From: Polyangiales bacterium
GTDB lineage: Bacteria > Myxococcota_A > Polyangia > Polyangiales > Ga0077539
Length of the DNA: 64,000 nucleotides
Reading direction: 5' to 3'
Assembly: GCA_044229975.1 (NCBI GenBank)
Contig: JBGARZ010000002.1
Coordinates: 768,001 to 832,000, forward strand
The position numbers were made by a program, and so were the translations under genes. The notes beneath the pieces were generated by a model. That model was given only the letters and a program-made list of their open reading frames with translations. It made no database searches and was not told the origin of the DNA. Below are positions 28,217 through 60,042 of the stretch, one piece after another. Every line of letters starts with the position of its first letter. Position 1 is the first letter of the stretch.

Positions 28217-28228
28217 GGACGGGCGCGC

Positions 28229-29227: not shown

Positions 29228-29315
29228 GGGCGGCGGTCTATCACGAAACGCGTCGGGGCCGCGAAGGGACTGTGTGTCCCGGCGCGGCCCCGCAGCGATC
29301 GAGAGTGGTGTGCGA

Positions 29316-30479: not shown

Positions 30480-30725
30480 TTGTCGAACTCCTCTAACGGA
30501 TGGTTGAAGTGCCCGCGGAGCACGCACGCGCTAGGCGTGCGGCCCACCGGGAAAGCAAGCGTTCCCGGATCTCGCACGCCGCGCAGGCCGTGAGCACCCG
30601 ACGACGCGCCCGGCTCTCTAGCATCGAAACTGAAAGCGATTCAACTAGCGGCTGACGCCTGCGGAGCGGCGTCCATGACGCACGGGAAGTTGGGTACGCG
30701 GAGGCTGCGTGCTACCGCGACAGCG

Positions 30726-35726
<5,001 letters not shown>

Positions 35727-42294: not shown

Positions 42295-43461
42295 TCAAGC
42301 GGCGACGCGCGACGCGGCGGGCGCGGGGTCGCGGTAGACGGCGCACAGCCTGCTCATCACGGCCGACCACGTGTAGCGCTCGATGAGTCGACCGCGACCC
42401 ACGACGCCCAGCGTGCGACGCGCCTCGACGTCGAGGGCGAGCGCCTCGATGAGGGCGTCGCGCAGGGACGACACGTCACCCGCTTCGAAGCACCGACCCG
42501 CCCCGGTGCCGCGGACGAGATCGGACACCGCGCCGCCGTCGGGACCCACGACCAGCGCGCCGCACGCGATGGCCTCGGCGGTGGACAGCGAGAAGGTCTC
42601 CGAGCGGCTGGGCACCACGACCACGTCGCTCGACGCCAGCGTGCGTGCGACCGCAGCAGGCGAGGCCAGGTACGGCCGCACCGTGACGGCCGACCGTGTG
42701 CGGGCGAACTCCTCCAGGCGCGGACGCAGCGGGCCGTCGCCGACGAGGTCGAGGCGAGCGCCCGTCACGGCGTGGACGGCGTCGAAGGCGGCGAGGAGGA
42801 GGGGTAGCTCCTTGTCGGAGGTGAAGCGCCCCGAGTAGCAGATGACGGGCGCCGCGCCGTCCGGGCGCACACCGGCCGCGTCGGGAGTGAACACCTCGAC
42901 GTCGACCCCGAGGCCCACCTCACGAACGCGCGGGAAGCCACGACGGGTGAGCTCGCGCTCCATGGTGGGCGAGGCCACGAGCGTCGCGTCGTACCGCGAG
43001 TGCTGCCGACGGAAGAACGCCCACACCGCCTCGGCGAGGGTGTCTCCGACGTCCCGCACGGGGAGCGAGTGCGTGATGTTTTCGACGACCTGTCGGGGAT
43101 GACTGTGGAAGAAGCCCACCACCTTCGGCGGCCTCGGCAGACGCCGCACCTCGCGCAGCACGATGCCGGGCAGCGCGTAGTGGCTCGCGATCTCGATGAC
43201 GTCGGGCTGGAGCTCACGGATGAGCTCGCCAATGCCGGCGCGCGCGCCAAAGAGACGATAGGCGGGGTTTCCCGGCATCGGCGGACCGGGCAGGCGGTGC
43301 ATGGTGCCGTCGCCGAAGGGCTCGCGAGAGCGCGACGCGCCGGGAACGACGAAGTGGCACTCGACGCCCTCCCGCGGGAGCGCCGCGGCCTTCTCCAGGT
43401 AGTACCGCTTGATGCCGCCGCATGAGTCGGAGAACGCGCTCGTGATGTCGAGCACCCGCAT
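42295..43461 (-). CDS. GT4 glycosyltransferase
   Basis: GGIKRY, LGVD, GRFTSDK, ETFSLSTAE (EX7E); GAAGGA SD. Confidence 0.9.
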   Translation of the reverse strand: MRVLDITSAFSDSCGGIKRYYLEKAAALPREGVECHFVVPGASRSREPFGDGTMHRLPGPPMPGNPAYRLFGARAGIGELIRELQPDVIEIASHYALPGIVLREVRRLPRPPKVVGFFHSHPRQVVENITHSLPVRDVGDTLAEAVWAFFRRQHSRYDATLVASPTMERELTRRGFPRVREVGLGVDVEVFTPDAAGVRPDGAAPVICYSGRFTSDKELPLLLAAFDAVHAVTGARLDLVGDGPLRPRLEEFARTRSAVTVRPYLASPAAVARTLASSDVVVVPSRSETFSLSTAEAIACGALVVGPDGGAVSDLVRGTGAGRCFEAGDVSSLRDALIEALALDVEARRTLGVVGRGRLIERYTWSAVMSRLCAVYRDPAPAASRVAA

Positions 43462-44448: not shown

Positions 44449-46761
44449 ATGTCGTCGTCGCGCGAACCCGCGGTCACCCCCGCCCTGGCCCGCGAGCACG
44501 GTCTCACCGACGAGGAGTACGCCCTCGCCGTGAAGTCCATCGGCCGCACGCCGACCTTCCCCGAGCTCGGGGTGCTGTCGGTGATGTGGTCCGAGCACTG
44601 CTCGTACAAGTCGTCCCGCGTTCACCTGAAGCGCCTGCCCACCAAGGGCCCGCGCGTCATCCACGGCCCCGGGGAAAACGCCGGCGTCGTGGACATTGGC
44701 GACGGCTGGGCGGTGGTCTTCAAGATGGAGTCGCACAACCACCCGTCGTTCATCGAGCCCTACCAGGGCGCGGGCACGGGCGTCGGCGGCATCTTGCGTG
44801 ACGTCTTCACCATGGGCGCGCGCCCCGTCGCGGTGATGGACTCGCTGCGCTTCGGCGAGCCCTCGCACCCGCGCACCCCCGGCCTCGTGCGCGGCGTGGT
44901 CGCGGGCATCGCGGGCTACGGCAACGCGTTTGGCGTGCCGACGGTGGGCGGCGAGGTGCAATTCGACGCGGCCTACAACGGCAACATCCTCGTCAACGCC
45001 TTCGCGCTCGGCCTGTGCCGCAGCGATCGGATCTTCCTCGGCCAGGCCAAGGGCGTGGGCAACCCGATCTTGTACGTGGGCGCGCGCACCGGGCGCGACG
45101 GCATCCACGGCGCGACCATGGCGAGCGCAGAGTTCGAGGACGGCGTCGAGGCCGAGCGGCCGACGGTGCAGGTGGGCGACCCCTTCATGGAGAAGCTTCT
45201 CCTCGAAGGCTGCCTGGAGATCTTCGCCGCCGACGTGCTCGAAGGCGTGCAGGACATGGGCGCGGCGGGCCTCACGTCGAGCACCGTGGAGATGGCCGGG
45301 CGCGCGGGCAACGGCGTGGAGCTGTGGCTCGACCGGCTGCCGCGACGCGCGAAGAACCTCTCGGCCTACGAGATCCTCCTGAGCGAGTCGCAGGAGCGGA
45401 TGATCATGGTGGCGCGCGACGGCGAAGAGCAGCGCGTGCTCGACATCTGCGCCAAGTGGGACCTCGACGCCCAGGTGGTCGGCCGCGTCACCGACACCGG
45501 GCGCTTCGTCATCCGCGCGACCGCCGGCTACGACCCGCTCTCGGGCGACCCGTGGCCCGACGAGTCGCCCGTCGTGGTCGACCTGCCCGTCGGCCTGCTC
45601 ACCGACGAAGCGCCGGTCTACTCGCGCCCGTGCGTCGATGATCCGCGGCTCACCGACCGCTACGACGTCGACGCGACGGGCCTCCCCTTCGACGCGCGCG
45701 CCGACCTGCTGGAGTTGCTCTCGGCGCCCAACGTGGGCAGCCGCGCGTGGATCTACCGCCAGTACGATCACATCGTCCGCGACGGCACGGTGGTGCGCCC
45801 CGGCGCGGCCGACGCGGCGGTGGTTCGTCTCTTCTGCGAGGACGAGCGCGGTCGGCGCGAGAAGCTCATCGCGCTGTCGAGCGACTGCAATGGGCGCTTC
45901 TGCGAGCTCGACCCGCGCACCGGCGCGGCGATGGCGGTGGCCGAGGCGTGCCGCAACCTCGCGTGCGTGGGCGCCGCCCCCATCGGCCTCACCGACTGCC
46001 TCAACTTCGGCAACCCCCAGCGCCCGGAGATCATGGCGCAGTTTCGCGACGCCATCGACGGACTCGCCGACGCCTGCAAGGCGCTCGACGTGCCCATCGT
46101 CTCCGGCAACGTGAGCCTCTACAACGAGACAACCGAGGCGGGCGGTCCGCGCGCGGTGCTGCCGACGCCGACCATCGGCGCGGTGGGTCTCTTCGAGAAG
46201 GTGAGCGACGTCGTGGGCGCGGGCTTCCGCACGGCGGGCGACCACGTCTTCGTGTTGGGTCCGCGCGGCGACGATCGCCTCGGCGGCAGCGAGTGGCTCA
46301 CCCGTCGCACCGGCAAGGTGTGCGGTCGGCCACCGTCCATCGACCTCGCGGCCGAAGCAGCGCTGCAACGCTTCCTCGTGAGCGCGGCGCGCGAGGGCCT
46401 TCTGGCATCCGCGCACGACTGTGCCGAGGGCGGGCTGCTCGTGGCCTACGCCGAGGCGTGCCTGCTCGGGCGCGCGGGCGCGACGCTGCTGCTGCCTCCG
46501 GGTGTGGCCGCGACGCCGGGCGGGCTCTTCGGCGAAGACCCCACGCGCGTCGTGGTGTCGGTGACGCCGTACGTGCTGGAGCTGTTCGCGCGGAGGGTCG
46601 CCGAGGCGGGCGTTCCGTGCGCGGCCGTGGGTCGCGTCGGAGGCGAGTCGCTCACCGTGGAAGGCGTCGCCATCTGGGGGCTCGGCGAGCTCTCGGAGGC
46701 CCACGCGTCGGCGCTCGACGGCATCGTCGGGCGAGACGACGATGCGCGACCGCGATCCTGA
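44449..46761 (+). CDS. purL: phosphoribosylformylglycinamidine synthase subunit PurL (small type)
   Basis: [57 protein letters not shown]. Confidence 0.97.
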
Positions 46762-47155
46762 GCACTGGCTCTATCGCCACACGCCGCGCGAGTGGATTCG
46801 CGCGGCGCTGGGCGAGCTCGATCAGGCGAAGCGGGCCTACGCCGCCCACAACGGGCGCGCGGGGCTCGCAGGCTGCCGACGCGCGGCGGGCGTCGCACTC
46901 AACGGCTGGCTCTCGACGATGGACACACCCGCCGAAGCCTACGGGCGAACGTACATGGACCACCTCGCGGCGCTGAGCGTCGACGCGACGGTTCCGGAAG
47001 AGGTGCGGACGGCGGCGCGGCTGCTGCGACAGACGCCGCTACCGGGCGGGGAGATCGTCGCGCTACGGACGGCCACAACGGACGCTCGGGCACTGGATGC
47101 GGCCGAGACCATCATGGCGCACGCCTACGCCGAGGTGCTACGCGCCGAGCCCTGA
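46742..47155 (+). CDS. hypothetical helical protein, possible HEPN-like fold
   Basis: [12 protein letters not shown]…[13 protein letters not shown] spacing resembles the HEPN N-terminal helices; overlaps the purL end by 20 nt. Confidence 0.6.
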
Positions 47156-47339: not shown

Positions 47340-48551
47340 TTACCAACCCGCGACAAGCGACGCCATGCGATCGCGCTCGGCGTCGGGAATCTCTGGATAT
47401 ACAGGCAGAAACACCACCTCGGCGCGCCACGACTCGCACTGCGCGGCCCGCAGCGAAGGGCGCTCGACCGCGGTCTCGACGGCCGCGATGGTGCTCGTCC
47501 CGCGCGCCGCATCGAAGCCCGCCGCGCGGAGCGTACGCACCAGCGCATCGGGCGCGGCCACGCGAACCGCGAAGAGCCAATGGGTGCGATCGGGCATCGC
47601 CGACCCGAGCACCGGCACCCTGCCCCCAAGTGCAGCGATCATGTGCTCGCCCGCCGCACGTCGGCGCGCAATGCGCTCGGTTCGCTCGACCATGAGCTGC
47701 GCGTGCAGAGTCGCGCAGAGGGCATCGCACGGCCGCGCACGAATCGCATGGAGCAGTGCCTCGGGCGTCTCCGCCGGGAAGCCCTTGGTCACGCCCGTCA
47801 CCACCGCGTCGACGTCTCTCCCGGCAACGGCAAGCGTCCGCTCGAAGCCCCGATAGCGCCACGGGTCGCGCGGAACCACCAGCGCCAGGTATGTCGCCAG
47901 CTTGCGCGCGTAGCGCCTCGTCGACTGCGCGGGCCACGCGGCGATCACCTCCCGCATCCGTGACCGCAGCACAGTGTCTCGCACCCGCACGAGGCCGCCT
48001 CCGAGAGCCGTCGCCGTCTTGATCGACCCGAAGCTGTGCAGCACCACGTCGGCGCACGCGCTGCCCTCCAGGCGATGGGCGCCGGTGTAGCCCTGGGCGT
48101 CGTCGTCGACCACGACCATGCCCGCGCGGTGAGCGCGTTCGGCGAAGGCATCGAGCGGGGCTCGCGCGCCGAAGAGCTGCGCCATGACCAGCACCCGCGA
48201 ACGCGTCGTGATGGCTGCGTCGAGGGTCTCCAGCGACGGCGCCAGCGTCCCCGGCTCACAGTCGAGCGGAACCGGCACCAGCCCGTGCCCACGCACCACG
48301 CGAGCCATGTCGGGGATGGTCCAACCGGAGAGCAGCACCTCGTCGCCGGGCGCGAGCGCGAGCGCGGTGAGCAGCGCATCGAAGCCCGAGCGCGCGGAGA
48401 GCGTCGCGATGACTTCTCCCGCTGGAGACACGTGGTCTTCGAGCGAGCGCACTGCGTTGCGAGGTGGTCGCGCGGTGTAGCCGAGCGCGCGGACGAGGGC
48501 GGCGGGCTCGATGTCGATGCGGGCCCGCGGGTAGAGGGGGTTCATCGCCAT
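47340..48551 (-). CDS. DegT/DnrJ/EryC1/StrS-family PLP aminotransferase
   Basis: SARSG, PGDEVL, QLFG, DDAQ, SFGSIKT (PLP Lys), LGGG, FLPVYP. Confidence 0.85.
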   Translation of the reverse strand: MAMNPLYPRARIDIEPAALVRALGYTARPPRNAVRSLEDHVSPAGEVIATLSARSGFDALLTALALAPGDEVLLSGWTIPDMARVVRGHGLVPVPLDCEPGTLAPSLETLDAAITTRSRVLVMAQLFGARAPLDAFAERAHRAGMVVVDDDAQGYTGAHRLEGSACADVVLHSFGSIKTATALGGGLVRVRDTVLRSRMREVIAAWPAQSTRRYARKLATYLALVVPRDPWRYRGFERTLAVAGRDVDAVVTGVTKGFPAETPEALLHAIRARPCDALCATLHAQLMVERTERIARRRAAGEHMIAALGGRVPVLGSAMPDRTHWLFAVRVAAPDALVRTLRAAGFDAARGTSTIAAVETAVERPSLRAAQCESWRAEVVFLPVYPEIPDAERDRMASLVAGW

Positions 48552-49336
48552 CGATCGACTCCCCAGGCGACCACGACGCCGAGCGCGACGCCCGCGACGA
48601 CGTCCACCGCATAGTGCTGACGGAGGAGCATCGTCGAGATCGCGATGAGCACCGCGGTCGCCGCGCTCCAACCGGCGAGCAGGCGGCCGTCGTGGCGAAG
48701 ACGCCAGGCGGCGTGGAAGGCCATCGCGCAGTGGGTCGACGGGAGGCAGTTCACGATGGGGTCGCTCCCGCGGATGGAGTTGAGCGACCACGCGCCGAAG
48801 CTCCCTCCAGTGGCCGCCAGCGAGCGCGGAAACGACACCGGCACCGACAGCCACGCGACCACGCTGACGAGCACGATGAGCACGTGGCCGATGGTCACGC
48901 GGCGCAGCGCATCGTCACTGGTCGCTCGCACAAACGGGAGCGCGCTCAGCGGGTGCACGCCCAGGTAGAGCGGCGCCACCGCCGGGACGAAGGGCAGGCG
49001 CGCCGCGAGGCCCTCGGCGAGGACGTGCGCTCGCGACGGGTCGGTGCACGCCGCGACCGCGTAGTAGCTGCCCGCCCAGAGCAGCCACGCGAGCGGCGCG
49101 ACGATGGCGCCCCGCGCGTAGCCCGACCCTTGGACTGCCGCACGAAAGGCCCACGCACCGACCCATGCCGGGACGACGCCCAGCGCGAGCACCAACGTCA
49201 CCGCGGGCGACGGCCAACGGACACCGAGCAGCTCGCCGAGCGCGACCACCTGTCCACCCGCGACGAGCGCGACGAAGACGGCCGTGGCGGCGGAGCGGGC
49301 GCGGTCAGAGGAAGCGGCGGGTCCCGACGGTTCCAT
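48542..49336 (-). CDS. PAP2-superfamily membrane phosphotransferase/phosphatase (AUR1/IPC-synthase-like)
   Basis: Multi-TM; NCLPSTH and RQHYAVDVVAG motifs. Confidence 0.78.
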   Translation of the reverse strand: MEPSGPAASSDRARSAATAVFVALVAGGQVVALGELLGVRWPSPAVTLVLALGVVPAWVGAWAFRAAVQGSGYARGAIVAPLAWLLWAGSYYAVAACTDPSRAHVLAEGLAARLPFVPAVAPLYLGVHPLSALPFVRATSDDALRRVTIGHVLIVLVSVVAWLSVPVSFPRSLAATGGSFGAWSLNSIRGSDPIVNCLPSTHCAMAFHAAWRLRHDGRLLAGWSAATAVLIAISTMLLRQHYAVDVVAGVALGVVVAWGVDRWR

Positions 49337-50267
49337 CGTGGGCGTGGTCGGCGCGGTGTTGGTAGGCGGGCGCGAGGAGGCTGTCGAGGCGCTCCATGAG
49401 GTCGTCGGTGGCGCGCTGGAGGGCGGGGCGATGGGCCTCCTCGTCGTCGGGATCGAAGGCGCGGAATCCAGCCGGAAGCGCCGAGAAGTCGGGTCGATAC
49501 GCTTCACCGAAGCGCACGTCGATGATGCCGCGGCGCGGGACGATGGACTGTCCGTGAAAGGCCTCGCGGCAACCGCTCATCCCCGCGGGCACGACCGGGA
49601 CGCCGAGCGCGTGGGCGAAGAGCATGGTGCCGATGCGACCCCGGCCGAGACGGCTGGCGACGGTTCCTTCGGGGTAGATCTGCACCGACCACCCGGCCGC
49701 GACGGACTCGCGCGCGAAGCGAAGCGCCTCCCCGAGCACCGCGCGATAGGCGTCGCGCCAGCAGTCGCGGAGGGTCGTTCGCGACGGGTCGAAGGGCAGC
49801 CCGAGCACGCTCCGCCGCCGCGACTGGAGCGCGTCGAAGAACGCCGTCGCCGGCAGCGCGTCGCCCCGGTCGAGGTGATCGCGGCACGCGCGGTACTCCT
49901 CCTCGGTGGGTCGCCGACCGGCGGTGCGCGCGGCGTCGACGAGGATCACGTACCCCCGCGACGCGAGCGGAATCACCCCGGTGCGCGCGAGCACGGGCTC
50001 CATGGCGCGCGAGTGATAGCTCTTGGCCTTGGTGACCGTGACCACGCGCTGCCCGATGCGCTCCATCGCCGACCTGAACGTCATGAAGTCGTACTTCTGC
50101 GTCGAGTTGGTCGCGTAGATGACGGGGCTCGCGGGCTGCGCAAACCCGTGGAGCACGACGCGCGCCCCACCGAGCGCCTCGGCCACCTGAAACGCCCCGG
50201 TGACGGCGGCCTCCCAGTGAGCTCGGGGCAGCACCCGATAGCGGGCGAAGTAGTCGAGGTCGAGCAT
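49305..50267 (-). CDS. PlsC-like lysophospholipid acyltransferase family protein, variant motif I
   Basis: YATNSTQKYD in place of NHxxxxD; IYPEGT; VPVVPAG; VRFGE. Confidence 0.75.
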   Translation of the reverse strand: MLDLDYFARYRVLPRAHWEAAVTGAFQVAEALGGARVVLHGFAQPASPVIYATNSTQKYDFMTFRSAMERIGQRVVTVTKAKSYHSRAMEPVLARTGVIPLASRGYVILVDAARTAGRRPTEEEYRACRDHLDRGDALPATAFFDALQSRRRSVLGLPFDPSRTTLRDCWRDAYRAVLGEALRFARESVAAGWSVQIYPEGTVASRLGRGRIGTMLFAHALGVPVVPAGMSGCREAFHGQSIVPRRGIIDVRFGEAYRPDFSALPAGFRAFDPDDEEAHRPALQRATDDLMERLDSLLAPAYQHRADHAHDGTVGTRRFL

Positions 50268-50366
50268 CGGCGGGGCGCGACTATCGCCCCGCGGAAGGGG
50301 GCCGCACAACGGGGCGTGGAGGGTGCGGCGCTCGCGGGCGTGTGGTAGGTGGCGGCGACAAGAGCG

Positions 50367-51104
50367 ATGGCCGACGCAGAGCAAGAGATCGACACCGACG
50401 CCGGGCGCATCCGCGCCAACCCCCTGCTCCATGAAATCTATCGGGACGTCTACGCGCGCATCCTCGACGCGGTGCCGCCGGAGCAGTTTCCGCGGCTGCT
50501 GGAGCTCGGCTCGGGCGGCGGCTTCTTCAGCGAGTTTGCGCCGCACACCATCACCAGCGAGTGCGTCCCGGTGCCGCGCGTCGATCGTGTGGTCGATGCG
50601 TGCAAGATCGACGAGCACTTCGAGCCTGCCTCGCTCGACGCCATCACGGCCTTCAACGTCTTCCACCACCTGCCCGACTGCGAGGGCTTCCTGCGCGGCG
50701 CGCAGACCGTCCTCCGCCCGGGCGGCCGCATCGTGCTCATCGAGCCGTGGTTCACGCCGCTGGGGCAGTGGTTCTACCGGGCGATCCACCACGAGCCCTC
50801 GCTCCTCGACCCCAACGACTGGAACATCTCCGGCGTCGGTCGCCTCGCGGGCGCCAACTCCCGCCTGCCCACCAGCGTCTTCCGCGACGGCGACGCCCGC
50901 TTCGCCCGCAGCTTCCCCGCCTTGCGCGTCGTGAGCCGCGAGCCCTTCCACAAGTGGCTCTACCTCTTCTCCGGGGGCCTCAAGCTCAACACCCGCATCC
51001 CCCGCCCCATCGCCCGCGCGCTGGTCGCGGCCGACCGCGCGGTGCACCCCGGAGACAACGCCGCGGGCCTGTTCGCGCGCATCGTCGTCGAGCGCCTTCC
51101 GTAG
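50367..51104 (+). CDS. class I SAM-dependent methyltransferase
   Basis: LLELGSGGG, NVFHHL, LRPGGRIVLIEP. Confidence 0.88.
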   Translation: MADAEQEIDTDAGRIRANPLLHEIYRDVYARILDAVPPEQFPRLLELGSGGGFFSEFAPHTITSECVPVPRVDRVVDACKIDEHFEPASLDAITAFNVFHHLPDCEGFLRGAQTVLRPGGRIVLIEPWFTPLGQWFYRAIHHEPSLLDPNDWNISGVGRLAGANSRLPTSVFRDGDARFARSFPALRVVSREPFHKWLYLFSGGLKLNTRIPRPIARALVAADRAVHPGDNAAGLFARIVVERLP

Positions 51105-51136
51105 TCCTTCCTTCCCACGAGAGAGCCGACACCACC

Positions 51137-51796
51137 ATGGCCGCTGAGATCACCCTCGACCTCGTCAAGCGCTTCCCCAGCAACGGTCCCACCGACCCCA
51201 TCCGGTACTACCGCAAGCCCCTCACCGGCTGGCTCTTCCGCGAGCGCATCAACCTCGGCCTCCGCATGCTGCGCGACCTGAAGTTCGATCGCGCCCTGGA
51301 GATCGGCTACGGGTCCGGCGCGGTGCAGGTCTCGCTGCACAGCGTCGCCAGGGAGGTGCACGGCATCGACCTCGACGCCGACCCGACGCTCGCCACACGG
51401 GTGCTCGACGCGCTCTCGCTGAAGTCCGAGCTGCGCCAGGGCTCGGTGTACGAGCTCCCCTACGAGGACGCGCACTTCGACCTCGTGGCGTCGTTCTCGA
51501 CCTTCGAGCACCTGCACGAGTTCGACAAGGCGCTCTCCGAGGTGGCCCGCGTGCTGCGGCCCGGCGGGCGTTTCCTCCTCGGCATGCCCGCGGTCAACAA
51601 GATGATGGAGATGTCCTTCCTGGCCATCGGGTTCAAGGGCATCGACGACCACCACGTCACGACCCCGCAGCAGGTGGCCGCGCGCTTCCACGCCCACGGC
51701 TTCATCGTCGACGACCAGGCCCGCCTCACGCTCCCCATCCCCACGGTGCCGGGCGCCACGGTCTACTACGACTGGCTCCTGCGCCGTACGCCCTGA
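51137..51796 (+). CDS. class I SAM-dependent methyltransferase (Methyltransf_11-like)
   Basis: ALEIGYGSG, LPYEDAHFDLV, FEHL, RVLRPGG. Confidence 0.9.
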   Translation: MAAEITLDLVKRFPSNGPTDPIRYYRKPLTGWLFRERINLGLRMLRDLKFDRALEIGYGSGAVQVSLHSVAREVHGIDLDADPTLATRVLDALSLKSELRQGSVYELPYEDAHFDLVASFSTFEHLHEFDKALSEVARVLRPGGRFLLGMPAVNKMMEMSFLAIGFKGIDDHHVTTPQQVAARFHAHGFIVDDQARLTLPIPTVPGATVYYDWLLRRTP

Positions 51797-51858
51797 CCCC
51801 GCCGCTCCTCCCTCCGACCCGTCGCGGGGAACGACCCGTGCAGTGACGAAGCCCCACG

Positions 51859-54450
51859 ATGGTTGACCCTCCCCCCGCGCAGCTCTCCCTCATCGACCGC
51901 GTCCTCGTGTTCTTCGCGCGCCTCGGCGCCCGTCGCCCGCTGCGCGTGCTCCTCGCCACCTTCCTGGTGATCGCGCTCTCGGCCCTCGCCGCCGCGCACC
52001 TGGAGTTTCGCCAGGACTTCATCGAGCTGCTGCCCTCCGAGAGCGTCGGCGCGAGGCTCCTGCGCCGCGCGATGGCCCGCATGGGCGGCGGCAGCGCCAC
52101 CATGTTCGTGGTCGTCTCGTCGCCCGACGCCGACGCCAACCGTCGCATCGTCGACGCGCTCGAACCGCAGCTCCGCGCGCTCCCGTCCAACCTCGTGCGA
52201 ACCGTCGAGCACGGCCCCGAAGAGATCCGCCGCTTCTTCTGGCAGCGCCGCTGGCTCTACGCCGAGGTGGGCGACCTCGAAGAGATCTCGTGCGAGCTCC
52301 AACGCGCGCGCCGTCGGGCGCAGCCGGGCTTCGTCGACCTCGACGACGAGTCGTGCGCCGAGCTCCGCAGCGACCACGGCCACGAGCGCCCCGCGCCCAC
52401 CACCACGGCCAACGACCCACCACCCGAGCCCGAACCCGCCAACGCCTCGGCCGCCGCGCGCCCCTTCTACCGCTTCCGCACGCAGCTCCACGCCCGCTCG
52501 CGCGAGGTCGACCAATACCCCACCGGGTATTTCCGCAACCCCGAGGGCACCCTCTACGCCATCGTGCTGCGCTCGCCCGCCACGGGCACCGGCGACAGCA
52601 CCGGCGACCAGCTCATGACCCGCGTGACGGCGCTCGTGCGCGACGTGCACCCCGAGCGCTTCCACCCGCGCGCCGAGGTGGGCCTCGGCGGCGACATCCC
52701 CAGCGCCATCGCCGAACGTGACGCATTGAAGGAAGAGGCCATCAAGACCTCCGGGCTCGCGGTGGTGCTCATCCTCGGGTCCATCGTGGTGTTCTTCCGG
52801 TCGTTTTCGTCGCTCGCCCACATCGGGCTCGCGATGATCACGGGCGTCGGGCTCGCGTTCGCCGTCGCCTTCTTCGCCTTCGGCTACCTCAACGCGTCGA
52901 CGGCCTTCCTCGGCTCCATCATCGCCGGCAACGGCATCAACTACGGAATCATCTACCTCGCCCGCTACCGCGACCGCCGCGCGCTCGGCGACTCCATCGA
53001 GGAGGCCCTCGTCGACGCCGCCGTCACCTGCCGCCGCGGCACCCAGCTCGCGGCCCTCGCGGCCTCGTTCGCGTACGGCTCGCTGATGCTGACGTCGTTT
53101 CGCGGGTTCTCGCAGTTCGGCCTCATCGGCGGCGTCGGCATGATCTTCTGCTGGTGCGCCACGATGATCGTGGTGCCCGCCACGGTCACCGCCGTCGAGG
53201 GCCTCAAGGCGAAGCTCTTCCCCAACCGCGCCGCCCGCGTGTCGCGCGGCCCCACCCGCACACCCATCAGCGGCGCCATCGCGTGGGCCACCGGGCGCTT
53301 CCCGGTGCAGATCCTCGTGCTCGGCCTCGGGCTCGCGATCTTCTCGGCCGTCGCGCTGCCGAAGTACCTGCGCGACCCCTGGGAGTACAACTTCGCCAAC
53401 CTCGGATCGCGCGGCTCGCGCCACACCGGCGCCGACGCCTGGAGCAGCCGCGCCGGGCGCATCTTCGTCGGCCGCAGCAGCTCGCCCGACATCCTCCTGG
53501 CCGACCGCTTCGAGGACGTCATCGAGCTCTCCGACGCGCTCCTGCGCCGCGACCAGCAGCGCACCGGCGGCCGCTACATCGACCACATCGAGACCGCGTG
53601 GGACCGCCTCGGCGGACAGCCCGCCGCCGTCGCCCGCAAGCTCGAGATCCTGCGCGACATCCGCGCCGACATCGACGCGGTGCTGCCCGAGTTGAGCGGC
53701 GAAGACCTCGCGCTCGCCCGCGAGTGGCGCCCGCCCGAGGACCTCCACGCACCGCAGCCCGACGAGCTCCCGGCGCTGGTGCGCGCGCAGTACACCGAGC
53801 GTTCGGGGCGATTCGGAACGCCCGTGTTCGTCTACTACAAGCCGTGGTTCACGCCGAGCGACGGGCGCAAGCTCATCATCGTCGCCGACCTCACGCAAAA
53901 CGTCCGCCTCGCCGACGGTCGCACCGTGCCCACCGTGAGCCGCTCGACGGTCTTCGCCGAGATGGTTCGCGCCATGAGCACCGACGGCCCGCGCGCGACC
54001 TTCGCGGCCTTCCTCGTGGTGGTGTTCCATTCGCTGCTGGCGACGCGGCGCATCGGGCCGGCGGCCATGGTGCTGGGCGCCCTGCTGTCGGGCGTGCTCT
54101 ACACCGTCGGCGGCGCGGCCCACCTCGGGGTGCGCCTCAACTTCCTCAACTTCGTCGCGCTGCCCCTCACCTTTGGCATCGGCGTCGAGTACGCGATGAA
54201 CCTCTACGACCGCGTCGAGCACTACGGCGGCGATGTGGCCGAAGGCATCAAGTCCGTCGGAGGCGCTGTGACCCTCTGCTCGATGACCACCATCATCGGG
54301 TACGGCTCGCTGCTCGCGGCCGACAACCAGGCGCTGCAATCGTTCGGCTACCTCGCCGTCGCGGGCGAGCTGTCGTGCATCTGCACCGCGATGGTGCTGC
54401 TGCCCGCCGCCATGGTGCTCGCGCGCCGCCGCCGGGAGCGCAAGGCATGA
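51859..54450 (+). CDS. MMPL/RND family lipid transporter (HpnN-like)
   Basis: Two repeats of TM, periplasmic domain and five TMs; GNGINYG and GIGVEYA; FRGFSQFG; ALQSFG. Confidence 0.88.
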   Translation: MVDPPPAQLSLIDRVLVFFARLGARRPLRVLLATFLVIALSALAAAHLEFRQDFIELLPSESVGARLLRRAMARMGGGSATMFVVVSSPDADANRRIVDALEPQLRALPSNLVRTVEHGPEEIRRFFWQRRWLYAEVGDLEEISCELQRARRRAQPGFVDLDDESCAELRSDHGHERPAPTTTANDPPPEPEPANASAAARPFYRFRTQLHARSREVDQYPTGYFRNPEGTLYAIVLRSPATGTGDSTGDQLMTRVTALVRDVHPERFHPRAEVGLGGDIPSAIAERDALKEEAIKTSGLAVVLILGSIVVFFRSFSSLAHIGLAMITGVGLAFAVAFFAFGYLNASTAFLGSIIAGNGINYGIIYLARYRDRRALGDSIEEALVDAAVTCRRGTQLAALAASFAYGSLMLTSFRGFSQFGLIGGVGMIFCWCATMIVVPATVTAVEGLKAKLFPNRAARVSRGPTRTPISGAIAWATGRFPVQILVLGLGLAIFSAVALPKYLRDPWEYNFANLGSRGSRHTGADAWSSRAGRIFVGRSSSPDILLADRFEDVIELSDALLRRDQQRTGGRYIDHIETAWDRLGGQPAAVARKLEILRDIRADIDAVLPELSGEDLALAREWRPPEDLHAPQPDELPALVRAQYTERSGRFGTPVFVYYKPWFTPSDGRKLIIVADLTQNVRLADGRTVPTVSRSTVFAEMVRAMSTDGPRATFAAFLVVVFHSLLATRRIGPAAMVLGALLSGVLYTVGGAAHLGVRLNFLNFVALPLTFGIGVEYAMNLYDRVEHYGGDVAEGIKSVGGAVTLCSMTTIIGYGSLLAADNQALQSFGYLAVAGELSCICTAMVLLPAAMVLARRRRERKA

Positions 54451-55679
54451 GCGAGCCGCGGAAGGTTCTCTTCATCAACGACACGGCGCGCAACGGCGGG
54501 CCGGGCCGCAGCCTCCACGCGATCCTCAGCTTCGTCGACCCGGAGGTCATCCACCGCATGGTCATGCTCCCCCGCGAGGACGCCATCGCGCGGCTGCTGC
54601 GCGAGGCGCGCGTCGTGGACGAGCTCATCATCGAGCACGACCTCATCGAAAACGCGTGGCAGCCGATGGACCGCGCCGTCGAGCGCGCCGACCTCGACGC
54701 CCCGTGGTCGGTGCGCTTCCCCCGCCTCGCCCTCAACGTCGCGCGCATGGGTCGGCTCGCGTTCACGCTCCCTCGCTTGGTGCGCGAGCGCGGCGTCGAG
54801 CTCATCTACTGCAACGGAACCACCGCGGACTTCGTCGGCGGCGTCGTGGGCAACCTCACGCACACCCCGGTGCTCTGGCACGTGCGCTACACGTCCATCC
54901 CCGCCGCGAGCCGCCCGCTGCACAACGCGCTCGCGCGCAGCCGCAACCTGCGCCGCATCGTGTGCGTCTCCCACGCGTCGGCCGCGCTCTTCCCCGACCT
55001 CCCGCACAAGGTGCAGGTCGTCCACAACGCCGTCGACGTCGAGCGCTACCGCCGCGACGCCACCGCCGGATCGCTGCGCGGATCGCTCGTTCCGACCGAT
55101 GCGTTCATCTACGGGAGCATGGGACGCATCCTGCCGCGCAAGGGCTACCCCCACATGATCCGCGCGGCGAAGGCGCTCATCGACCGCTGCACCCCGGAGG
55201 AGAGACATCGTCCGCACTTCGTGGTGCTGGGCGATACGCCCGCCGACCTGCCGGGCGACCACCTCGCCGAGTGCCGCGCGCTCGTCGCGGAGTGTGGGTT
55301 GGAGGGGCGGTTCTTGTTCCCGGGGTTTACCGAGGATGTGAGGCCGTGGTTGCAGGACTTCGACGTGGTGGTGCTCCCGTCGGTGTACCCCGACCCGCTG
55401 CCGCGCACCGTCATCGAGGGCATGGCCTACGAGCGCCCCGTGGTGGCCTTCGACGTCGGTGGCGTCGGCGAGATGGTGCGCGACGGCGTGACGGGATCGC
55501 TGCTCCCACCGTCGCCCTCCACCGATGCCTTCGCCGACGCGATGCTCGCGTACCTGCGCGACCCCGAACGACTACGCCGCGAGGGACTCGCCGCGCGCGA
55601 GGCCGTCATCGAAGGCTTCAGCGGCAGCGCGCACGGCCGGGCGATCCAGGCGCAGATCGCGCTCGCGCTCGCTACCTGA
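54447..55679 (+). CDS. GT4 glycosyltransferase
   Basis: GGPGRS, VHNAVD, GRILPRKG, DPLPRTVIE (DX7E variant); ATGA overlap with the MMPL gene. Confidence 0.9.
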   Translation: MSEPRKVLFINDTARNGGPGRSLHAILSFVDPEVIHRMVMLPREDAIARLLREARVVDELIIEHDLIENAWQPMDRAVERADLDAPWSVRFPRLALNVARMGRLAFTLPRLVRERGVELIYCNGTTADFVGGVVGNLTHTPVLWHVRYTSIPAASRPLHNALARSRNLRRIVCVSHASAALFPDLPHKVQVVHNAVDVERYRRDATAGSLRGSLVPTDAFIYGSMGRILPRKGYPHMIRAAKALIDRCTPEERHRPHFVVLGDTPADLPGDHLAECRALVAECGLEGRFLFPGFTEDVRPWLQDFDVVVLPSVYPDPLPRTVIEGMAYERPVVAFDVGGVGEMVRDGVTGSLLPPSPSTDAFADAMLAYLRDPERLRREGLAAREAVIEGFSGSAHGRAIQAQIALALAT

Positions 55680-56382
55680 AGAGCGAGCCGACGGTGTCGG
55701 TGGTGCGCCCCGCGGCCCACGCGAGCAGCGAGCGCGTCTCGTCGACCAGCATCGGGTGGTGCACGTCGGCCGGATGCAGCGCGATGCGAACGGACAACCC
55801 CGCCGACGGATACAGGCGACCGACCCGCGCGTAGGCCGCGCTGGAGAGCCGACGACCGAGCGTTCGGCTCGCGTAGTTGAGCGCCGGGCAGAGACGACGC
55901 GCGCCCGTCGAGGGCTGGTAGATGAAGAGCTGGTCCTCGCAGTAGTCGAGGCCACGCGAGCGCAGCGCAGGCAGCAGCCACGAGCGCCGCGCCCACGCGG
56001 GCGGGACGAAGCCGCGCATCGGCAGGCCGAGCTCGCGCAGCATCGAGGCGCCCGCGTCGAGCCACCCTTCGCCCACGTCGCGGTCGTAGCTGGCGAACTC
56101 GGCCTCGCCCGCGGAGACCACCCGCTGCGCGACGAAGTGACCGACGCCCGCGCCCGGCAGCGAGCGGTGGAAGTAGCCGTGGAGGAAGATCTCGTGCCCC
56201 TCGACGGAGAGCTCTCGGAGGAAGGACGCGTAGTCGGGGTGGTTGCGCAGCGGACCCTGCTGATGGAAGTCGGGAACCACCAGGAGCCCAGGCTTCACGC
56301 CCACCTCGCGGCACCAGCCGAGGGCGGTCTCGACCTCTGCGCGCCAGCGCGGCGACACGTCGTGGATGGACACGTGGATCAT
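55672..56382 (-). CDS. DUF2334-type polysaccharide deacetylase
   Basis: VSIHDVSP, LHGYFH, EAEF, GFVPPAW, RIALHPAD. Confidence 0.85.
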   Translation of the reverse strand: MIHVSIHDVSPRWRAEVETALGWCREVGVKPGLLVVPDFHQQGPLRNHPDYASFLRELSVEGHEIFLHGYFHRSLPGAGVGHFVAQRVVSAGEAEFASYDRDVGEGWLDAGASMLRELGLPMRGFVPPAWARRSWLLPALRSRGLDYCEDQLFIYQPSTGARRLCPALNYASRTLGRRLSSAAYARVGRLYPSAGLSVRIALHPADVHHPMLVDETRSLLAWAAGRTTDTVGSLFR

Positions 56383-57548
56383 CGCGGTGACCTCAAGGCG
56401 TCTTCGTAGATCATGAAGAGGTCATCGAAGTGCGAGCTCGCGGAGGGGATGAGCGCGGCCCTGGCCACCGCCCCCGCCGAGAGGGCGCCGGGTGGCTGAT
56501 GGAGTAGCCGCTTGATGGCCAGCGCGGCTTCCACCGGCGAGGCCGCCGGGTCGTAGGTCACGCCGCAGGTCTCGTCGACGAGCTCGCCGGCACCACCGGC
56601 CGAGGGGACCACCGCGGGGGTGCCAGAGGCGAGGGCCTCGGCCACGCTGAAGCCGAAGGTCTCGACGGCGCACCCGTGGATGAGGGCGTCGGCGCTGGCC
56701 AGCGTGCGGGCGTAGCGTTCACGGTCCGTGATGAAACCCGTGAACGTGACGCTCAGTCCGAGCGTGCGGGCGCGGGCTTCGAGGCGGGCGCGCTCGGGGC
56801 CGTCGCCCATCACGACCACCGCAACAGGAAGGGTCTTGGCCACCTCGGCGAGCGCGTCGAACACCAGCGCAGCCCGCTTTTCGAGGGCGAGTCGACCGAC
56901 CACCGCGACGAGCCGCGCCCTCGGATCGGACGCGTGCGGGCCCAGCAACGCTGCGCGCAGGGCCTCGTCCCGCAGCGAGGGCGAGAGGCTCGCGCGCTCG
57001 ATGCCGAAGGGCGCCTTGGCGACCCGCGGAACCCCCGCGACGCGGAGCTGCTCGGCCAGCCAGCAGGCGGAGACGATGGTTCGGTCGAAGCGCGAGGCCA
57101 TCGAACGCAGCCCCGCCCAGAGGGGTCGGAGGGCGAGGTCAGCACGGTTTGCCCCGAGCCAGCGGGAGAGAACGGGTCGTGCATAGCTCCCGATCTGATC
57201 GGAATGGAGCACCAGGGCACGCACCCCAACGTCTGGCTGAGTCGCGGCGATGAAGGCCGCGAGGTAGGGCGACGAGGCTTGCAGCACGTCGGGTCGCTCG
57301 TGGGCGATGAGGGCGCGCAGGGCTGGGACGTTCCAGAGGCAGTGGTAGCTGGGGTCGTAGGGCATCGCAGGGCCCTTCACGCGAACCAGCCTCCCACCGT
57401 GCACCGTCGTCTCCTCGGCGCGTGGCCCGGGTGCGACCACCACGACCTGATGGCCACGCGTTGTTCCCTCTCGGAGGAGCTGTGTTAGGTACGCGCGAAC
57501 GCCCCCGCCCCGCTCCGAGAAGAACTCCGTCAGGTCGAGAACCTTCAC
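56379..57548 (-). CDS. GT4 glycosyltransferase, paralog of 42295-43461
   Basis: GGGVRAY, GRLALEK, ETFGFSVAE; overlaps the DUF2334 start. Confidence 0.9.
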   Translation of the reverse strand: MKVLDLTEFFSERGGGVRAYLTQLLREGTTRGHQVVVVAPGPRAEETTVHGGRLVRVKGPAMPYDPSYHCLWNVPALRALIAHERPDVLQASSPYLAAFIAATQPDVGVRALVLHSDQIGSYARPVLSRWLGANRADLALRPLWAGLRSMASRFDRTIVSACWLAEQLRVAGVPRVAKAPFGIERASLSPSLRDEALRAALLGPHASDPRARLVAVVGRLALEKRAALVFDALAEVAKTLPVAVVVMGDGPERARLEARARTLGLSVTFTGFITDRERYARTLASADALIHGCAVETFGFSVAEALASGTPAVVPSAGGAGELVDETCGVTYDPAASPVEAALAIKRLLHQPPGALSAGAVARAALIPSASSHFDDLFMIYEDALRSPR

Positions 57549-57600
57549 GGCGACCGCTTGTACCAGAGCCTTCGGGAATTGCTTCGGCAGGACACCACCT

Positions 57601-59067
57601 ATGAACGCACCCAGCACCCCTCGCCCCCGACCGCGCGCGGCGACCGCCCAGTGGCCCCGGCGCATCGCGATCCTGAGCGACTACGTCCGGCTGCCGTACG
57701 CCAACGGCGCCACCTTCGCGACGCAGTTTCTCTACCGCGAGCTCACCCGCCGCGGGCACGAGGTGACCGTCATCGGCCCGCGCGACCCCGACGCGAAGCC
57801 CGAAGACCTCCCCGAGCGGCACATCTGCCTGCCGAGCGTTCCGCTCAACAACCACCCCGGCGTGTACATCCCGCTCCCGCTCGAAGGCATCCTCCGCGAG
57901 AAGCGCGACTGGGATTTCGACGTGGTGCTCGGCCAGACCGCCACCGAGCTCATGGAGCTCGGCCTCTGGCTCCGCGCGACGCGAGGCATCCCCCTCGTGG
58001 CCGTCAACACGGTGCACCTCCCGAGCGTCTACCCCGTGGTGATGCCCGACTCGATGCAGGACTCGAAGACCGCCCACTGGCTCTTCCAGAAGTCCTTCCT
58101 GAAGCTCGCGGAGGGCACCTCGGCCAGCGCCTACAACGGCTGCGACGGCCTCGTGGTGCTCTCCAACGGCCTGAAGAACTACTGGGAAGAGCGCGGTGTC
58201 ACGACCCCCATCCACGTCGTGCCCCGCTGCGTGGAGCCCCGCATCTTCGACACCGCCCCCGGCGCTGACCCCTTCCCTCGCGGCTTCCGCAAGGGTGCCC
58301 GCCTCCTCGTCGTGTGCCGTCACACCCGCGAGAAGGCCGTCGAGCGCCTGCTCGAAATCTTCGCGCGCTACGTCGCCCCGGCCAACCCCGACGCGACGCT
58401 CACGCTCCTCGGTGACGGCCCCGACCACGACCTCTTCCGCCGCACCGCGGAGGAGCTCGGCATCCGCGAGAAGACCCACTTCCCCGGTGAGTTTCCGCTG
58501 GGCGCGCTGCCGACCTGGTATCACCACGCCGACCTCTTCACGTACACGTCCCTCTCGGAGACCTACGGCCAGGTCGTGAGCGAGGCCCTCTGGTCGGGCC
58601 TGCCAGTGGTCGCCTTCGCCGACGGCATGGGCGTCTCGCAGCAGGTCGAGCACGACCTCACCGGCCTGCTCGTCGAGCCCGGCCCCGACGCCGAGATGGC
58701 CGACTGGCGCTTCGCCCGCGCGGTGGTCTCGCTGCTGCGCAACCCGCGCCGTCGACAGGCGCTCGCCACGCAGGCCGCCGCTCGCGCGCACGATCGATCG
58801 GCGCCCCACAAGATGCTCGAAGGCTTCCTCGGTGCGTTCGAAGCGGCGCGCGCGCACCGCGACGCCCATCCCCCGGACATGAGCAGCCCGCGGCTCGCGA
58901 CGGCGTTTCATGGCGGCCGCTGGATGGCCATCAACAGCATCGTGTACGGCCTCGGCCACCTGAAGCCCCCGGCCGTCGTCAACCGCCACGGCCGTCGCCA
59001 GCCCGCCTGGAACGACCTCCCCGACGTCCCCGCCACCCGCCCCGCCGCGCACGCCCGCCTCGGCTGA
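57601..59067 (+). CDS. GT4 glycosyltransferase (glycolipid synthase-like)
   Basis: ILSDY…NGA, RHTREK, GDGPD, ETYGQVVSE. Confidence 0.88.
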   Translation: MNAPSTPRPRPRAATAQWPRRIAILSDYVRLPYANGATFATQFLYRELTRRGHEVTVIGPRDPDAKPEDLPERHICLPSVPLNNHPGVYIPLPLEGILREKRDWDFDVVLGQTATELMELGLWLRATRGIPLVAVNTVHLPSVYPVVMPDSMQDSKTAHWLFQKSFLKLAEGTSASAYNGCDGLVVLSNGLKNYWEERGVTTPIHVVPRCVEPRIFDTAPGADPFPRGFRKGARLLVVCRHTREKAVERLLEIFARYVAPANPDATLTLLGDGPDHDLFRRTAEELGIREKTHFPGEFPLGALPTWYHHADLFTYTSLSETYGQVVSEALWSGLPVVAFADGMGVSQQVEHDLTGLLVEPGPDAEMADWRFARAVVSLLRNPRRRQALATQAAARAHDRSAPHKMLEGFLGAFEAARAHRDAHPPDMSSPRLATAFHGGRWMAINSIVYGLGHLKPPAVVNRHGRRQPAWNDLPDVPATRPAAHARLG

Positions 59068-59103
59068 ACTTCTCTCCCCGCGCGCTGCTAGTCTGCGCGC
59101 CCG

Positions 59104-60042
59104 ATGAAGCTCTGCGCCGTCTCCGTCGACCTCGACGAGGTCCCTTGCTACCACGCCATCCACGGGCTCCCGATGCCCGCCGACGACACCGCCCACGCGG
59201 TGTACATCCGCGCTGTCCCGCGCCTCGCCGAGCTCTTCGCCGACCTCCGCCTCCCCGCCACCTTCTTCGTCATCGGACGTGATCTCGACGCGCCCGTCGC
59301 GCTCGCGGCGGCCCGTGGTCTCGCGCGGTCGGGTCACGAGCTCGGCAACCACAGCCAGCACCATCGCTACGATCTGGTGCGCCTCTCCGCCGATGCGATG
59401 CGCGCCGAGGTGCGCGACGCCGCCGACGCCATCGCCCGCGCGCAGGGTCATCGCCCGGTGGGCTTCCGCGCGCCCGGCTACACCATCACCGACGCGCTCT
59501 TCGACGTGCTCGCCGCCGAGGGGGTCGCCTACGACAGCTCGGTGTTTCCGTGCCCCGCGTACTACGGCGCGAAGACAGCCATGATCGGCCTCATCGCCGC
59601 GCGCGGCCGCACCAGCCGCTCGGTGGTCGACACGCCCGCGGTGCTGCTCGCGCCCGCTGATCCGTACCTCCCGTCGCGCCCGTACTGGCGTCGCTCCGCC
59701 CATGGCGCCTCGCTCGTCGAGCTGCCCATCGGCGTCACGCGCGGCGCGCGGCTCCCCTTCATCGGCACCACGCTAGCGGGCCTCGGCCCCACCGGCAGTC
59801 GCCTGCTCGCGAAGCAGATGCTCGGTCGCCCGCTGGTGAACCTCGAACTGCACGGGCTCGACCTCCTCGACGCCCAGGACGGACTGCACCCGCTGGCCGA
59901 GCACCAGCCCGACCTGCGCGTCCCGGTGAGTCGGAAGAGCGCCGCGCTGCGCGCCGTGGTCGAGACCCTGCGAGACGACGGATATGAGTTCGTCACGCTG
60001 CGCGACGCGGCCGCGACCTTCGCTCACCGCCTCGCGGGCTGA
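59104..60042 (+). CDS. CE4 polysaccharide deacetylase family protein
   Basis: SVDLDE, ATFFVIG, GHELGNHSQHH, GFRAPGY, YDSS. Confidence 0.9.
   Translation: MKLCAVSVDLDEVPCYHAIHGLPMPADDTAHAVYIRAVPRLAELFADLRLPATFFVIGRDLDAPVALAAARGLARSGHELGNHSQHHRYDLVRLSADAMRAEVRDAADAIARAQGHRPVGFRAPGYTITDALFDVLAAEGVAYDSSVFPCPAYYGAKTAMIGLIAARGRTSRSVVDTPAVLLAPADPYLPSRPYWRRSAHGASLVELPIGVTRGARLPFIGTTLAGLGPTGSRLLAKQMLGRPLVNLELHGLDLLDAQDGLHPLAEHQPDLRVPVSRKSAALRAVVETLRDDGYEFVTLRDAAATFAHRLAG

Follow-up and report, generated by a model that had tools for sequence, protein, structure and literature searches.

The stretch of DNA analysed here, referred to as the window, comprises 64,000 nucleotides from a Polyangiales bacterium (GenBank assembly GCA_044229975.1, contig JBGARZ010000002.1, positions 768,001 to 832,000 of the forward strand); the genome that holds it (G000) measured 10.0 Mb and was 93% complete. 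Gene calls and Pfam searches placed eleven intact genes in four units at 47340-60042, the same arrangement from which an earlier note, made from the sequence alone, had proposed an amino-glyco(phospho)lipid synthesis and export locus. Five of these genes (51859-59067), coding for an MMPL transporter, three GT4 glycosyltransferases (GT4a, GT4b and GT4c) and a DUF2334 protein, the last of them optional, formed a core that recurred in other genomes and that, judging from its sequences and linkage, is likely to produce a glycolipid and to export it. Searches of the open-access literature turned up no account of the locus. The genes of the locus and two genes lying upstream of it were as follows:

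47340-48551, minus strand: DegT-type pyridoxal phosphate (PLP) enzyme (Pfam, 89 Pfam bits)
48542-49336, minus strand: PAP2 protein, lineage-specific (PAP2_3, 29.1 bits for a cut-off of 27, marginal)
49305-50267, minus strand: acyltransferase-fold gene, His-less, PlsC fold (23.6 bits for a cut-off of 23, marginal)
50367-51104, plus strand: MT1, class I S-adenosylmethionine (SAM) methyltransferase (Pfam)
51137-51796, plus strand: MT2, class I SAM methyltransferase (Pfam)
51859-54450, plus strand: MMPL/HpnN-like RND transporter of 863 amino acids (aa) (PF03176), predicted glycolipid exporter
54447-55679, plus strand: GT4a, retaining GT-B glycosyltransferase, 410 aa (PF00534; D-X7-E motif)
55672-56382, minus strand: DUF2334 protein, predicted de-N-acetylase of the GpgD kind, 236 aa (PF10096; NF053788)
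56379-57548, minus strand: GT4b, GpgS-like glycosyltransferase (NF053787), predicted to add an N-acetylhexosamine (HexNAc) or a hexose to a lipid
57601-59067, plus strand: GT4c, 488 aa, candidate first sugar transferase (PF00534/PF13439; E-X7-E motif)
59104-60042, plus strand: CE4 deacetylase, 312 aa (PF01522; motifs intact)
42295-43461, minus strand: GT4x, second GpgS-like glycosyltransferase (NF053787, 163 bits)
40757-42205: MATE gene, upstream of the eleven-gene locus

The Pfam labels of the earlier note agreed with our search, with marginal hits for the acyltransferase and PAP2 genes, and its statement that genes of the Wzx/Wzy/Wza, polyketide synthase (PKS) and nonribosomal peptide synthetase (NRPS) families are missing was borne out by Pfam and NCBIfam, in which none of the eleven proteins matched them. 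GT4x, the MATE gene and a Ser at the position of the His in the acyltransferase HX4D motif had not been mentioned in it. Overlaps between neighbouring genes were frequent: DegT and PAP2 overlapped by 10 bases and PAP2 and the acyltransferase gene by 32 in the minus-strand unit, GT4a and MMPL shared 4 bases, and GT4b and DUF2334, adjacent and co-oriented, overlapped by 4 bases and were kept as a pair across the family. GT4c and GT4b were divergent, with 52 bases between them. GT4x and the MATE gene were located 4-7 kb upstream of the eleven genes, beyond purQ-purL. A promoter and terminator scan gave no signal above chance.

Linkage of the five-gene core

Linkage was analysed by a scan of MMPL loci in one genome per species, in which the best 80 of 171 MMPL loci were compared. 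Fifty-five of these 80 loci, with MMPL identity below 57%, were considered to be outside the family, and partner genes were sought within 8 kb of MMPL. The family, treated here as an uncultured one of the Polyangiales, was represented by 30 genomes, which, being kin, are not independent samples.

The core recurred in Sorangium, in other Polyangiaceae and in Sandaracinaceae, in at least six gene orders. The order in Sorangium was GT4c-MMPL-GT4b, and in strain So ce56 (NC_010162.1, around 1453600-1460500; L262) the genes lay in one row, GT4c-MMPL-GT4b-GT4. GT4c was divergent from GT4b-MMPL in L228, L231, L237, L238 and L267 and from MMPL-GT4b in L288, the order GT4b-DUF2334-MMPL was obtained for L230 and L280, GT4a-MMPL faced DUF2334-GT4b, followed by GT4c, in L243 and L258, and L240 and L272 presented DUF2334-GT4b, GT4c, two genes and then MMPL. 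DUF2334 had no match in two complete Sorangium genomes.

At least one of GT4a, GT4b, GT4c and DUF2334 was found near MMPL in 39 of the 55 outside loci, and in 22 of 37 when the 18 Sorangium loci were subtracted; GT4b and GT4c each appeared in 31/55 and GT4a and DUF2334 each in 8/55. This linkage supports the earlier proposal of a locus for glycolipid head groups that includes a dedicated MMPL exporter. Within the family (n = 30), MMPL was present in 23 genomes, GT4c in 21, GT4a in 20, DUF2334 in 18 and GT4x in 7, and all carriers of GT4a, GT4c, DUF2334 or GT4x also had MMPL. Because genomes of kin are not independent, this nested distribution is nesting rather than co-evolution. In addition, among 20 distant loci from a phylum-wide search, GT4b and GT4c orthologues (39-42%) of genomes G161 and G178 flanked an MMPL only 23-25% like that of the window. 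The MMPL of G178 fell in a clade separate from the window MMPL in a FastTree tree of 52 rows, from which L323 was excluded as its alignment was too short; in the same tree a same-order genome grouped with Sorangium and Labilithrix.

Some observations weighed against a bond between transporter and glycosyltransferases: G014 and G020 retained MMPL without GT4a, GT4c or DUF2334, no partner occurred within 8 kb in 16 of the 55 outside loci, and related genomes in the linkage counts are not independent. It is conceivable, albeit improbable, that the GT4s and MMPL are old neighbours in an envelope region with separate substrates, the GT4s acting on a polysaccharide, a protein or a soluble molecule and MMPL on another lipid. 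MMPL orthologues without GT4s are in line with this, as are the closest solved relative of GT4a, which was Alr3699, the weak and mixed solved matches of GT4c, and a GT4-methyltransferase-GT4-methyltransferase-Wzx operon located near CE4 in other genera. Against it, the linkage persisted through at least six rearrangements and recurred with a second MMPL clade, each of the family carriers mentioned above had MMPL, and sister MMPLs are paired with other lipid head-group modules, as described below.

The remaining genes around the core showed a narrower distribution. MT1 and MT2 were found in 8/25 and 10/25 of the family MMPL loci, respectively, and in 0/55 outside the family, and they travelled with GT4a where MMPL has moved (L152, L161); these methyltransferases may O-methylate the head group in this family only. 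CE4 was present in 29 of the 30 family genomes, including all seven without MMPL, and in none of the 55 outside MMPL loci, and it neighbours GT4c in the family and probably has a wider role. The co-occurrence search that the earlier note had suggested gave a divided result, since the five-gene core recurred together whereas the acyltransferase-PAP2-DegT trio appeared in 0/80 loci and the methyltransferases and CE4 were linked only within the family. GT4x lay directly upstream of MMPL in L055 and L220. The three same-genus genomes without DUF2334 all carried GT4x, which hints at interchangeable caps, with GT4x as a possible stand-in for GT4b-DUF2334.

Head-group enzymes and transporter

Among curated models, those of GpgS and GpgD fitted GT4b, GT4x and DUF2334 best, every score being far under the cut-off: GT4b and GT4x reached 140 and 163 bits with the GpgS model NF053787 (cut-off 480), and DUF2334 reached 121 bits with the GpgD model NF053788 (cut-off 280). 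In Pseudomonas aeruginosa, according to excerpts of PMC12713373, GpgS attaches N-acetylglucosamine (GlcNAc) to phosphatidylglycerol and the acetyl group is taken off by GpgD, and hexSDF of Clostridioides difficile is cited there as a related system. The locus shares with gpgSDF a GT4 gene followed by an overlapping DUF2334/COG3233 deacetylase gene, and the pairing of a glycosyltransferase with a deacetylase for an amino sugar, put forward in the earlier note, is of a kind shown in those excerpts to make amino-sugar lipids. The locus differed from gpgSDF in its low scores (140-163 of 480, and 121 of 280), in having two more GT4s and an MMPL, in its optional deacetylase, and in that the flippase GpgF is the third gene there and has no counterpart in or near the locus, with seven PF03706 genes elsewhere in G000.

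GT4b also resembled sphingomonad enzymes. Its matches in plasmid records corresponded to Sphingomonadaceae in 8 of 10 cases, it was 32-36% identical, over the full length, to a glycosyltransferase (GT) of a sphingomonad deacetylase-GT-DUF2141-GT cluster, and it scored 285 bits on a profile of six sphingomonad sequences vs. 140 on GpgS. A deacetylase-GT-hypothetical-DUF2141-GT cluster surrounded the GT4b homologue in four of six annotated sphingomonad stretches. The corresponding loci were L363, L365, L366 and L370, and in L370 an LptF/G gene comes next. From its gene content, this cluster may account for the step that introduces glucosamine into Sphingomonas glycosphingolipids, among whose sugars glucosamine is listed in PMC6445935 (excerpt). 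The length (383 aa) and label of the GT4b-like sphingomonad protein, a putative GT, are also those given for 'Sgt2' from Novosphingobium (PMC13318209, Table S9); this coincidence, being of length and label only, is a hint. The HD, HGxxH, FxPP and HPxD motifs of DUF2334 were common to its sphingomonad homologue, and the E/D-X7-E motif of the GT4 family was present as D-X7-E in GT4a and as E-X7-E in GT4c.

Not all of these comparisons favoured a sphingolipid-type enzyme. Since the sequences of the sphingomonad profile were the top plasmid matches of GT4b itself, the profile is biased upward, and Pseudomonas is not in the collection, so the gap for GT4b is overstated; DUF2334 was equidistant (115 bits on the sphingomonad side vs. 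121 for GpgD), GT4x leaned to GpgS (163 vs. 124 bits on the sphingomonad profile), and the role of the sphingomonad cluster is putative only. In the deacetylase tree, where the GpgD-like row had a very long branch, DUF2334 could be assigned neither to GpgD nor to the sphingomonad side, and a search for GT4x homologues returned generic names only.

Ceramide is glycosylated in Caulobacter by two GT4 enzymes, Sgt1 and Sgt2, acting one after the other (PMC6445935, excerpt), and GT4 is described as a retaining family with ceramide and diacylglycerol acceptors, ceramide glycosylation occurring in Bacteroides too (PMC9692976, excerpt). The locus resembles Sgt1/Sgt2 and the sphingomonad GT4s (PMC6445935 and PMC13318209, in part) in having several GT4s, predicted to work on a lipid one after another, and in a serine palmitoyltransferase (SPT)-like gene in the cells. 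It differs in that neither GT4a nor GT4c gave an Sgt1-like match and in that export there proceeds by LptF2G2, according to the available part of a preprint (10.64898/2026.04.12.717747), a system not found here. The core is predicted to work like gpgSD and like Sgt1/Sgt2; by the tests run, it belongs to neither of them.

The strongest competitor to ceramide as the acceptor is a glycerolipid. In that case phosphatidylglycerol, diacylglycerol or an ether lipid would be modified by GT4b or GT4x and DUF2334 in the manner of GpgS/GpgD or HexS/HexD, with MMPL replacing GpgF. We consider this rather unlikely, although GpgS and GpgD head the curated matches, the GT4 family includes diacylglycerol glycolipid synthases, the locus has no gene of the GpgF type while the genome has seven, and the SPT identity of the SPT-like gene described below is unproven. 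The scores far under the GpgS and GpgD cut-offs speak against a glycerolipid, and so do the greater proximity of GT4b to sphingomonad enzymes and the operon of G161 that ties GT4c to an oxoamine synthase.

For the transporter, the best NCBIfam match was HpnN (TIGR03480; 178 bits vs. a cut-off of 752), NF052374 gave 119 bits vs. 1100, and its scores lay below the HpnN and BstA cut-offs. The structural model (predicted local distance difference test, pLDDT, 81.8) displayed an MMPL/RND fold of about 860 aa, with HpnN 5khn as top fold match (E 7e-27, template modelling (TM) score 0.67, 19% identity). It is thus similar to HpnN, the hopanoid transporter of Burkholderia, and to MmpL3 as a stand-alone RND protein, and different from them in its identity of 19%, in its scores below the HpnN cut-offs, in that no squalene cyclase was found and in its sugar transferase neighbours. 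The alignment showed an invariant Asn-Tyr in the first helix motif (residues 357-362) and a Glu-Tyr in the second (residues 773-778), at the positions of the Asp-Tyr pairs that serve proton relay in MmpL3/HpnN.

Export of a glycosylated hopanoid or sterol, in the manner of HpnN or BstA, would agree with HpnN being both the top profile and the top fold match. It is nevertheless hardly credible: the scores are far below the HpnN and BstA cut-offs, and no squalene cyclase was found in G000 (93% complete), in which the single match to the squalene-cyclase domain (41 bits) was a 654-aa repeat protein. This explanation is largely refuted for G000, and the hopanoid or sterol backbone, one of the options of the earlier note, was rejected.

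An MmpL beside spt in Myxococcus xanthus has been suspected of sphingolipid transport in myxobacteria, as a hypothesis in the discussion of the preprint cited above (10.64898/2026.04.12.717747, excerpt); compared by description, the window MMPL is tied to head-group genes and not to spt. Among 40 further MMPL loci, none had an adjoining spt, except for a PKS-fused oxoamine synthase about 13 kb off in G161. A sister clade of MMPLs was placed in 7 of 10 loci beside genes for inositol-phosphate synthase, CDP-alcohol phosphotransferase, aminotransferase or PAP2 proteins. Sister loci L301:991-9348 (G001), L307, L308, L309, L315-L317, L333 and L334 also held inositol dehydrogenase-like and AUR1-like PAP2 genes, and from their gene content these loci may encode a pathway for an amino-inositol phospholipid along with a dedicated exporter. 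The sister locus was absent from G000. A lipid kinase gene follows one more distant MMPL.

Lipid backbone and outer membrane

Genes for lipopolysaccharide (LPS) synthesis and transport were scarce. None of lpxC, lpxB and lptFG was found in G000, the controls being positive in 4 to 7 of 14 genomes, and among 61 related genomes lpxC appeared in five and lptFG in one. Neither lpxC nor lptFG was detected in two complete Sorangium genomes, a genus called LPS-lacking in the title of one paper, and Labilithrix had lpxC only, without lptFG. Four genomes had lpxC without lptFG, a sign that divergent copies of lptFG may escape the search. As a side observation, lpxC and lptFG were missing in nearly all Polyangiales searched (61 genomes), a few keeping lpxC alone, and the loss of LPS may be order-wide in Polyangiales.

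A replacement of LPS by the product of the locus met with contrary evidence. G161 has both lpxC and lptFG, and the seven family genomes without an MMPL orthologue also lacked lpxC and lptFG; because of these seven genomes, the locus is neither a universal LPS replacement nor the sole route to an LPS-free outer membrane, and a clean trade-off between the locus and LPS genes was rejected. Keck and colleagues are said to have found, in 2011, that the outer membrane of Sorangium is rich in sphingolipids.

Three oxoamine-synthase genes were present in G000, two of which look Kbl-like and BioF-like by their motifs. The third one (C35:47888-49120) had a TFSK motif, was located beside genes encoding an acyl carrier protein (ACP) plus two ketosynthases, and gave SPT as top PDB match. 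It was matched at 62-90% in 56 of the 61 genomes and also in Labilithrix, where it lies among an acyl ligase and three ACPs; such surroundings are described for sphingolipid-type AasR/AcpR homologues of myxobacteria in PMC9386255 (excerpt). The arrangement of ACP, two ketosynthases and SPT-like synthase (G000:C35:44742-49120, L389; L387:8332-15329) was kept in most Polyangiales searched, and by its sequence the C35-type oxoamine synthase is possibly a second kind of bacterial SPT. Some results weakened this assignment: the protein scored under every SPT cut-off (317 of 640 bits, with 311 for the BioF model), it was only 39% identical to the SPT candidate of So ce56, which nevertheless had no better match in G000, and ceramide synthase (cerS) and cerR were not identified in G000. 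At 39% identity, orthology with the So ce56 SPT was rejected, and the gene is referred to as SPT-like. Two 379-aa proteins of L323 considered as ceramide synthases were discarded, having no family match and no homologue in G000.

A closer association was observed in G161 (L385:695-11825), where an operon headed by GT4c also encodes a short-chain dehydrogenase/reductase (SDR), an acyl ligase and an ACP, together with a fusion protein of 2170 aa joining a KS-AT-KR-DH polyketide synthase to an oxoamine synthase. This row is divergent from GT4b-MMPL-GT32. As judged from these domains it is plausible as a long-chain-base line, and the whole is a candidate one-locus glycosphingoid pathway.

If the core makes and exports a glycolipid, its acceptor is somewhat more probably ceramide than not, whereas for the complete picture, glycosylation of a ceramide head group with one amino sugar followed by export through MMPL, we see about an even chance. 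The earlier note had held that the backbone could not be determined from the window; it is still unproven, and data from outside the window have narrowed it towards ceramide. In the reaction sequence that we favour, soluble cytoplasmic GT4s would attach one sugar after another to ceramide on the inner membrane's inner face. That GT4c acts first is a guess, based on its conservation and on the G161 operon. Where DUF2334 occurs, the sugar transferred by GT4b would be GlcNAc, and where it is absent, as in Sorangium, a neutral hexose or a HexNAc that stays uncleaved; since Sorangium has no DUF2334 match, the amino sugar would be optional. DUF2334 would deacetylate the HexNAc (GlcNAc to glucosamine), leaving a cationic or zwitterionic head, and, in this family alone, the sugar may be modified by the methyltransferases. 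MMPL would carry the product outward from the inner membrane, as HpnN does for hopanoids, and the destination would be the outer membrane of cells in which no LPS or Lpt genes were found.

A broader and more tentative proposal, on balance doubtful, is that Polyangiales fill the outer membrane through an MMPL family, independently of Lpt, each transporter being paired with a sphingolipid head-group cassette to itself, which would supply GT4 sugars and optionally an amino sugar in the present locus, and inositol phosphates in the sister clade. If true, it would amount to an Lpt-independent route of sphingolipid export with its genes named in Sorangium cellulosum. How sphingolipids reach the Gram-negative surface outside Caulobacter is stated as open in the available part of the preprint (10.64898/2026.04.12.717747); the locus gives named candidates for head-group enzymes and exporter in the cultured strain So ce56, in which this envelope question becomes testable. 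A GpgD-like deacetylase is also suggested as the source of glucosamine in bacterial glycosphingolipids. Should a glycerolipid prove to be the acceptor, the finding would be reduced to a known pathway in a new layout.

The insertion upstream of MT1 and other features of the window

The acyltransferase, PAP2 and DegT genes (47340-50267) are, from comparison of loci, best described as a separate, unrelated insertion at a variable site, outside the conserved core. They were missing upstream of MT1 in all seven same-genus loci (L045-L048, L050, L051 and L152), the site being empty in three of them and holding unrelated genes in four, and they were not linked in any of the best 80 of 171 MMPL loci. 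The single pathway of all eleven genes and the phospho-lipid made with PAP2, aminotransferase and acyltransferase, both proposed in the earlier note, found no support in this comparison, and the single pathway was rejected. Sixty relatives contained no PAP2 match at E 1e-12. The acyltransferase was matched in 15 of 30 family genomes; of its 14 closest loci elsewhere, 13 had DegT directly after it with no PAP2 between them, as did none of five more distant ones.

As regards the proteins, PAP2 has five hydrophobic segments and, read in the translation, the motifs PS-x-H and H-x3-D expected of AUR1/IPC-synthase-like PAP2 proteins. The top fold matches of the acyltransferase were PlsC 5kym and GPAT (E 3e-5 to 3e-4). 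The His of its HX4D motif was replaced by Ser in the window protein, and by Ser or Ala across this protein and its 11 closest relatives, and was kept in eight more distant ones. The DegT protein retained the PLP Asp and Lys. The His-less acyltransferase occurred only in family genomes having MMPL (12/12).

This last distribution would fit a cooperation of all eleven genes in G000, in which the insert adds an acyl, phospho or amino group, as would its position adjacent to and divergent from MT1 and the PAP2 and aminotransferase genes in sister MMPL loci L301, L308, L315 and L325, a locus that G000 lacks. We regard such cooperation as very improbable, given the absence of linkage in 80 loci, the unrelated inserts or empty sites in relatives, the lack of a PAP2 match in 60 relatives, the missing HX4D His, and the DegT enzymes of the sister loci, which are of another type (266-277 vs. 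89 Pfam bits).

Across the family, the His-less protein with PlsC fold was closely accompanied by a DegT-type PLP enzyme of divergent sequence (L066-L079, with His-bearing pairs in L078 and L079), and the pair is a module of its own, possibly an amino-lipid or acyl-binding one. A 137-aa gene without Pfam match (46742-47155) overlapped the end of purL and was kept there in the genus, the variable insertion site being located just behind it. Elsewhere in the window, a minus-strand row at 26321-30527 (an asparagine-synthase-like amidotransferase, an ArnC-like GT2 and an unknown 403-aa gene) corresponded to another envelope module, dnaE (DNA polymerase III alpha; 30675-35726) contained an intein with a LAGLIDADG homing endonuclease, and ThyX (36902-38377) presented two Thy1 domains.

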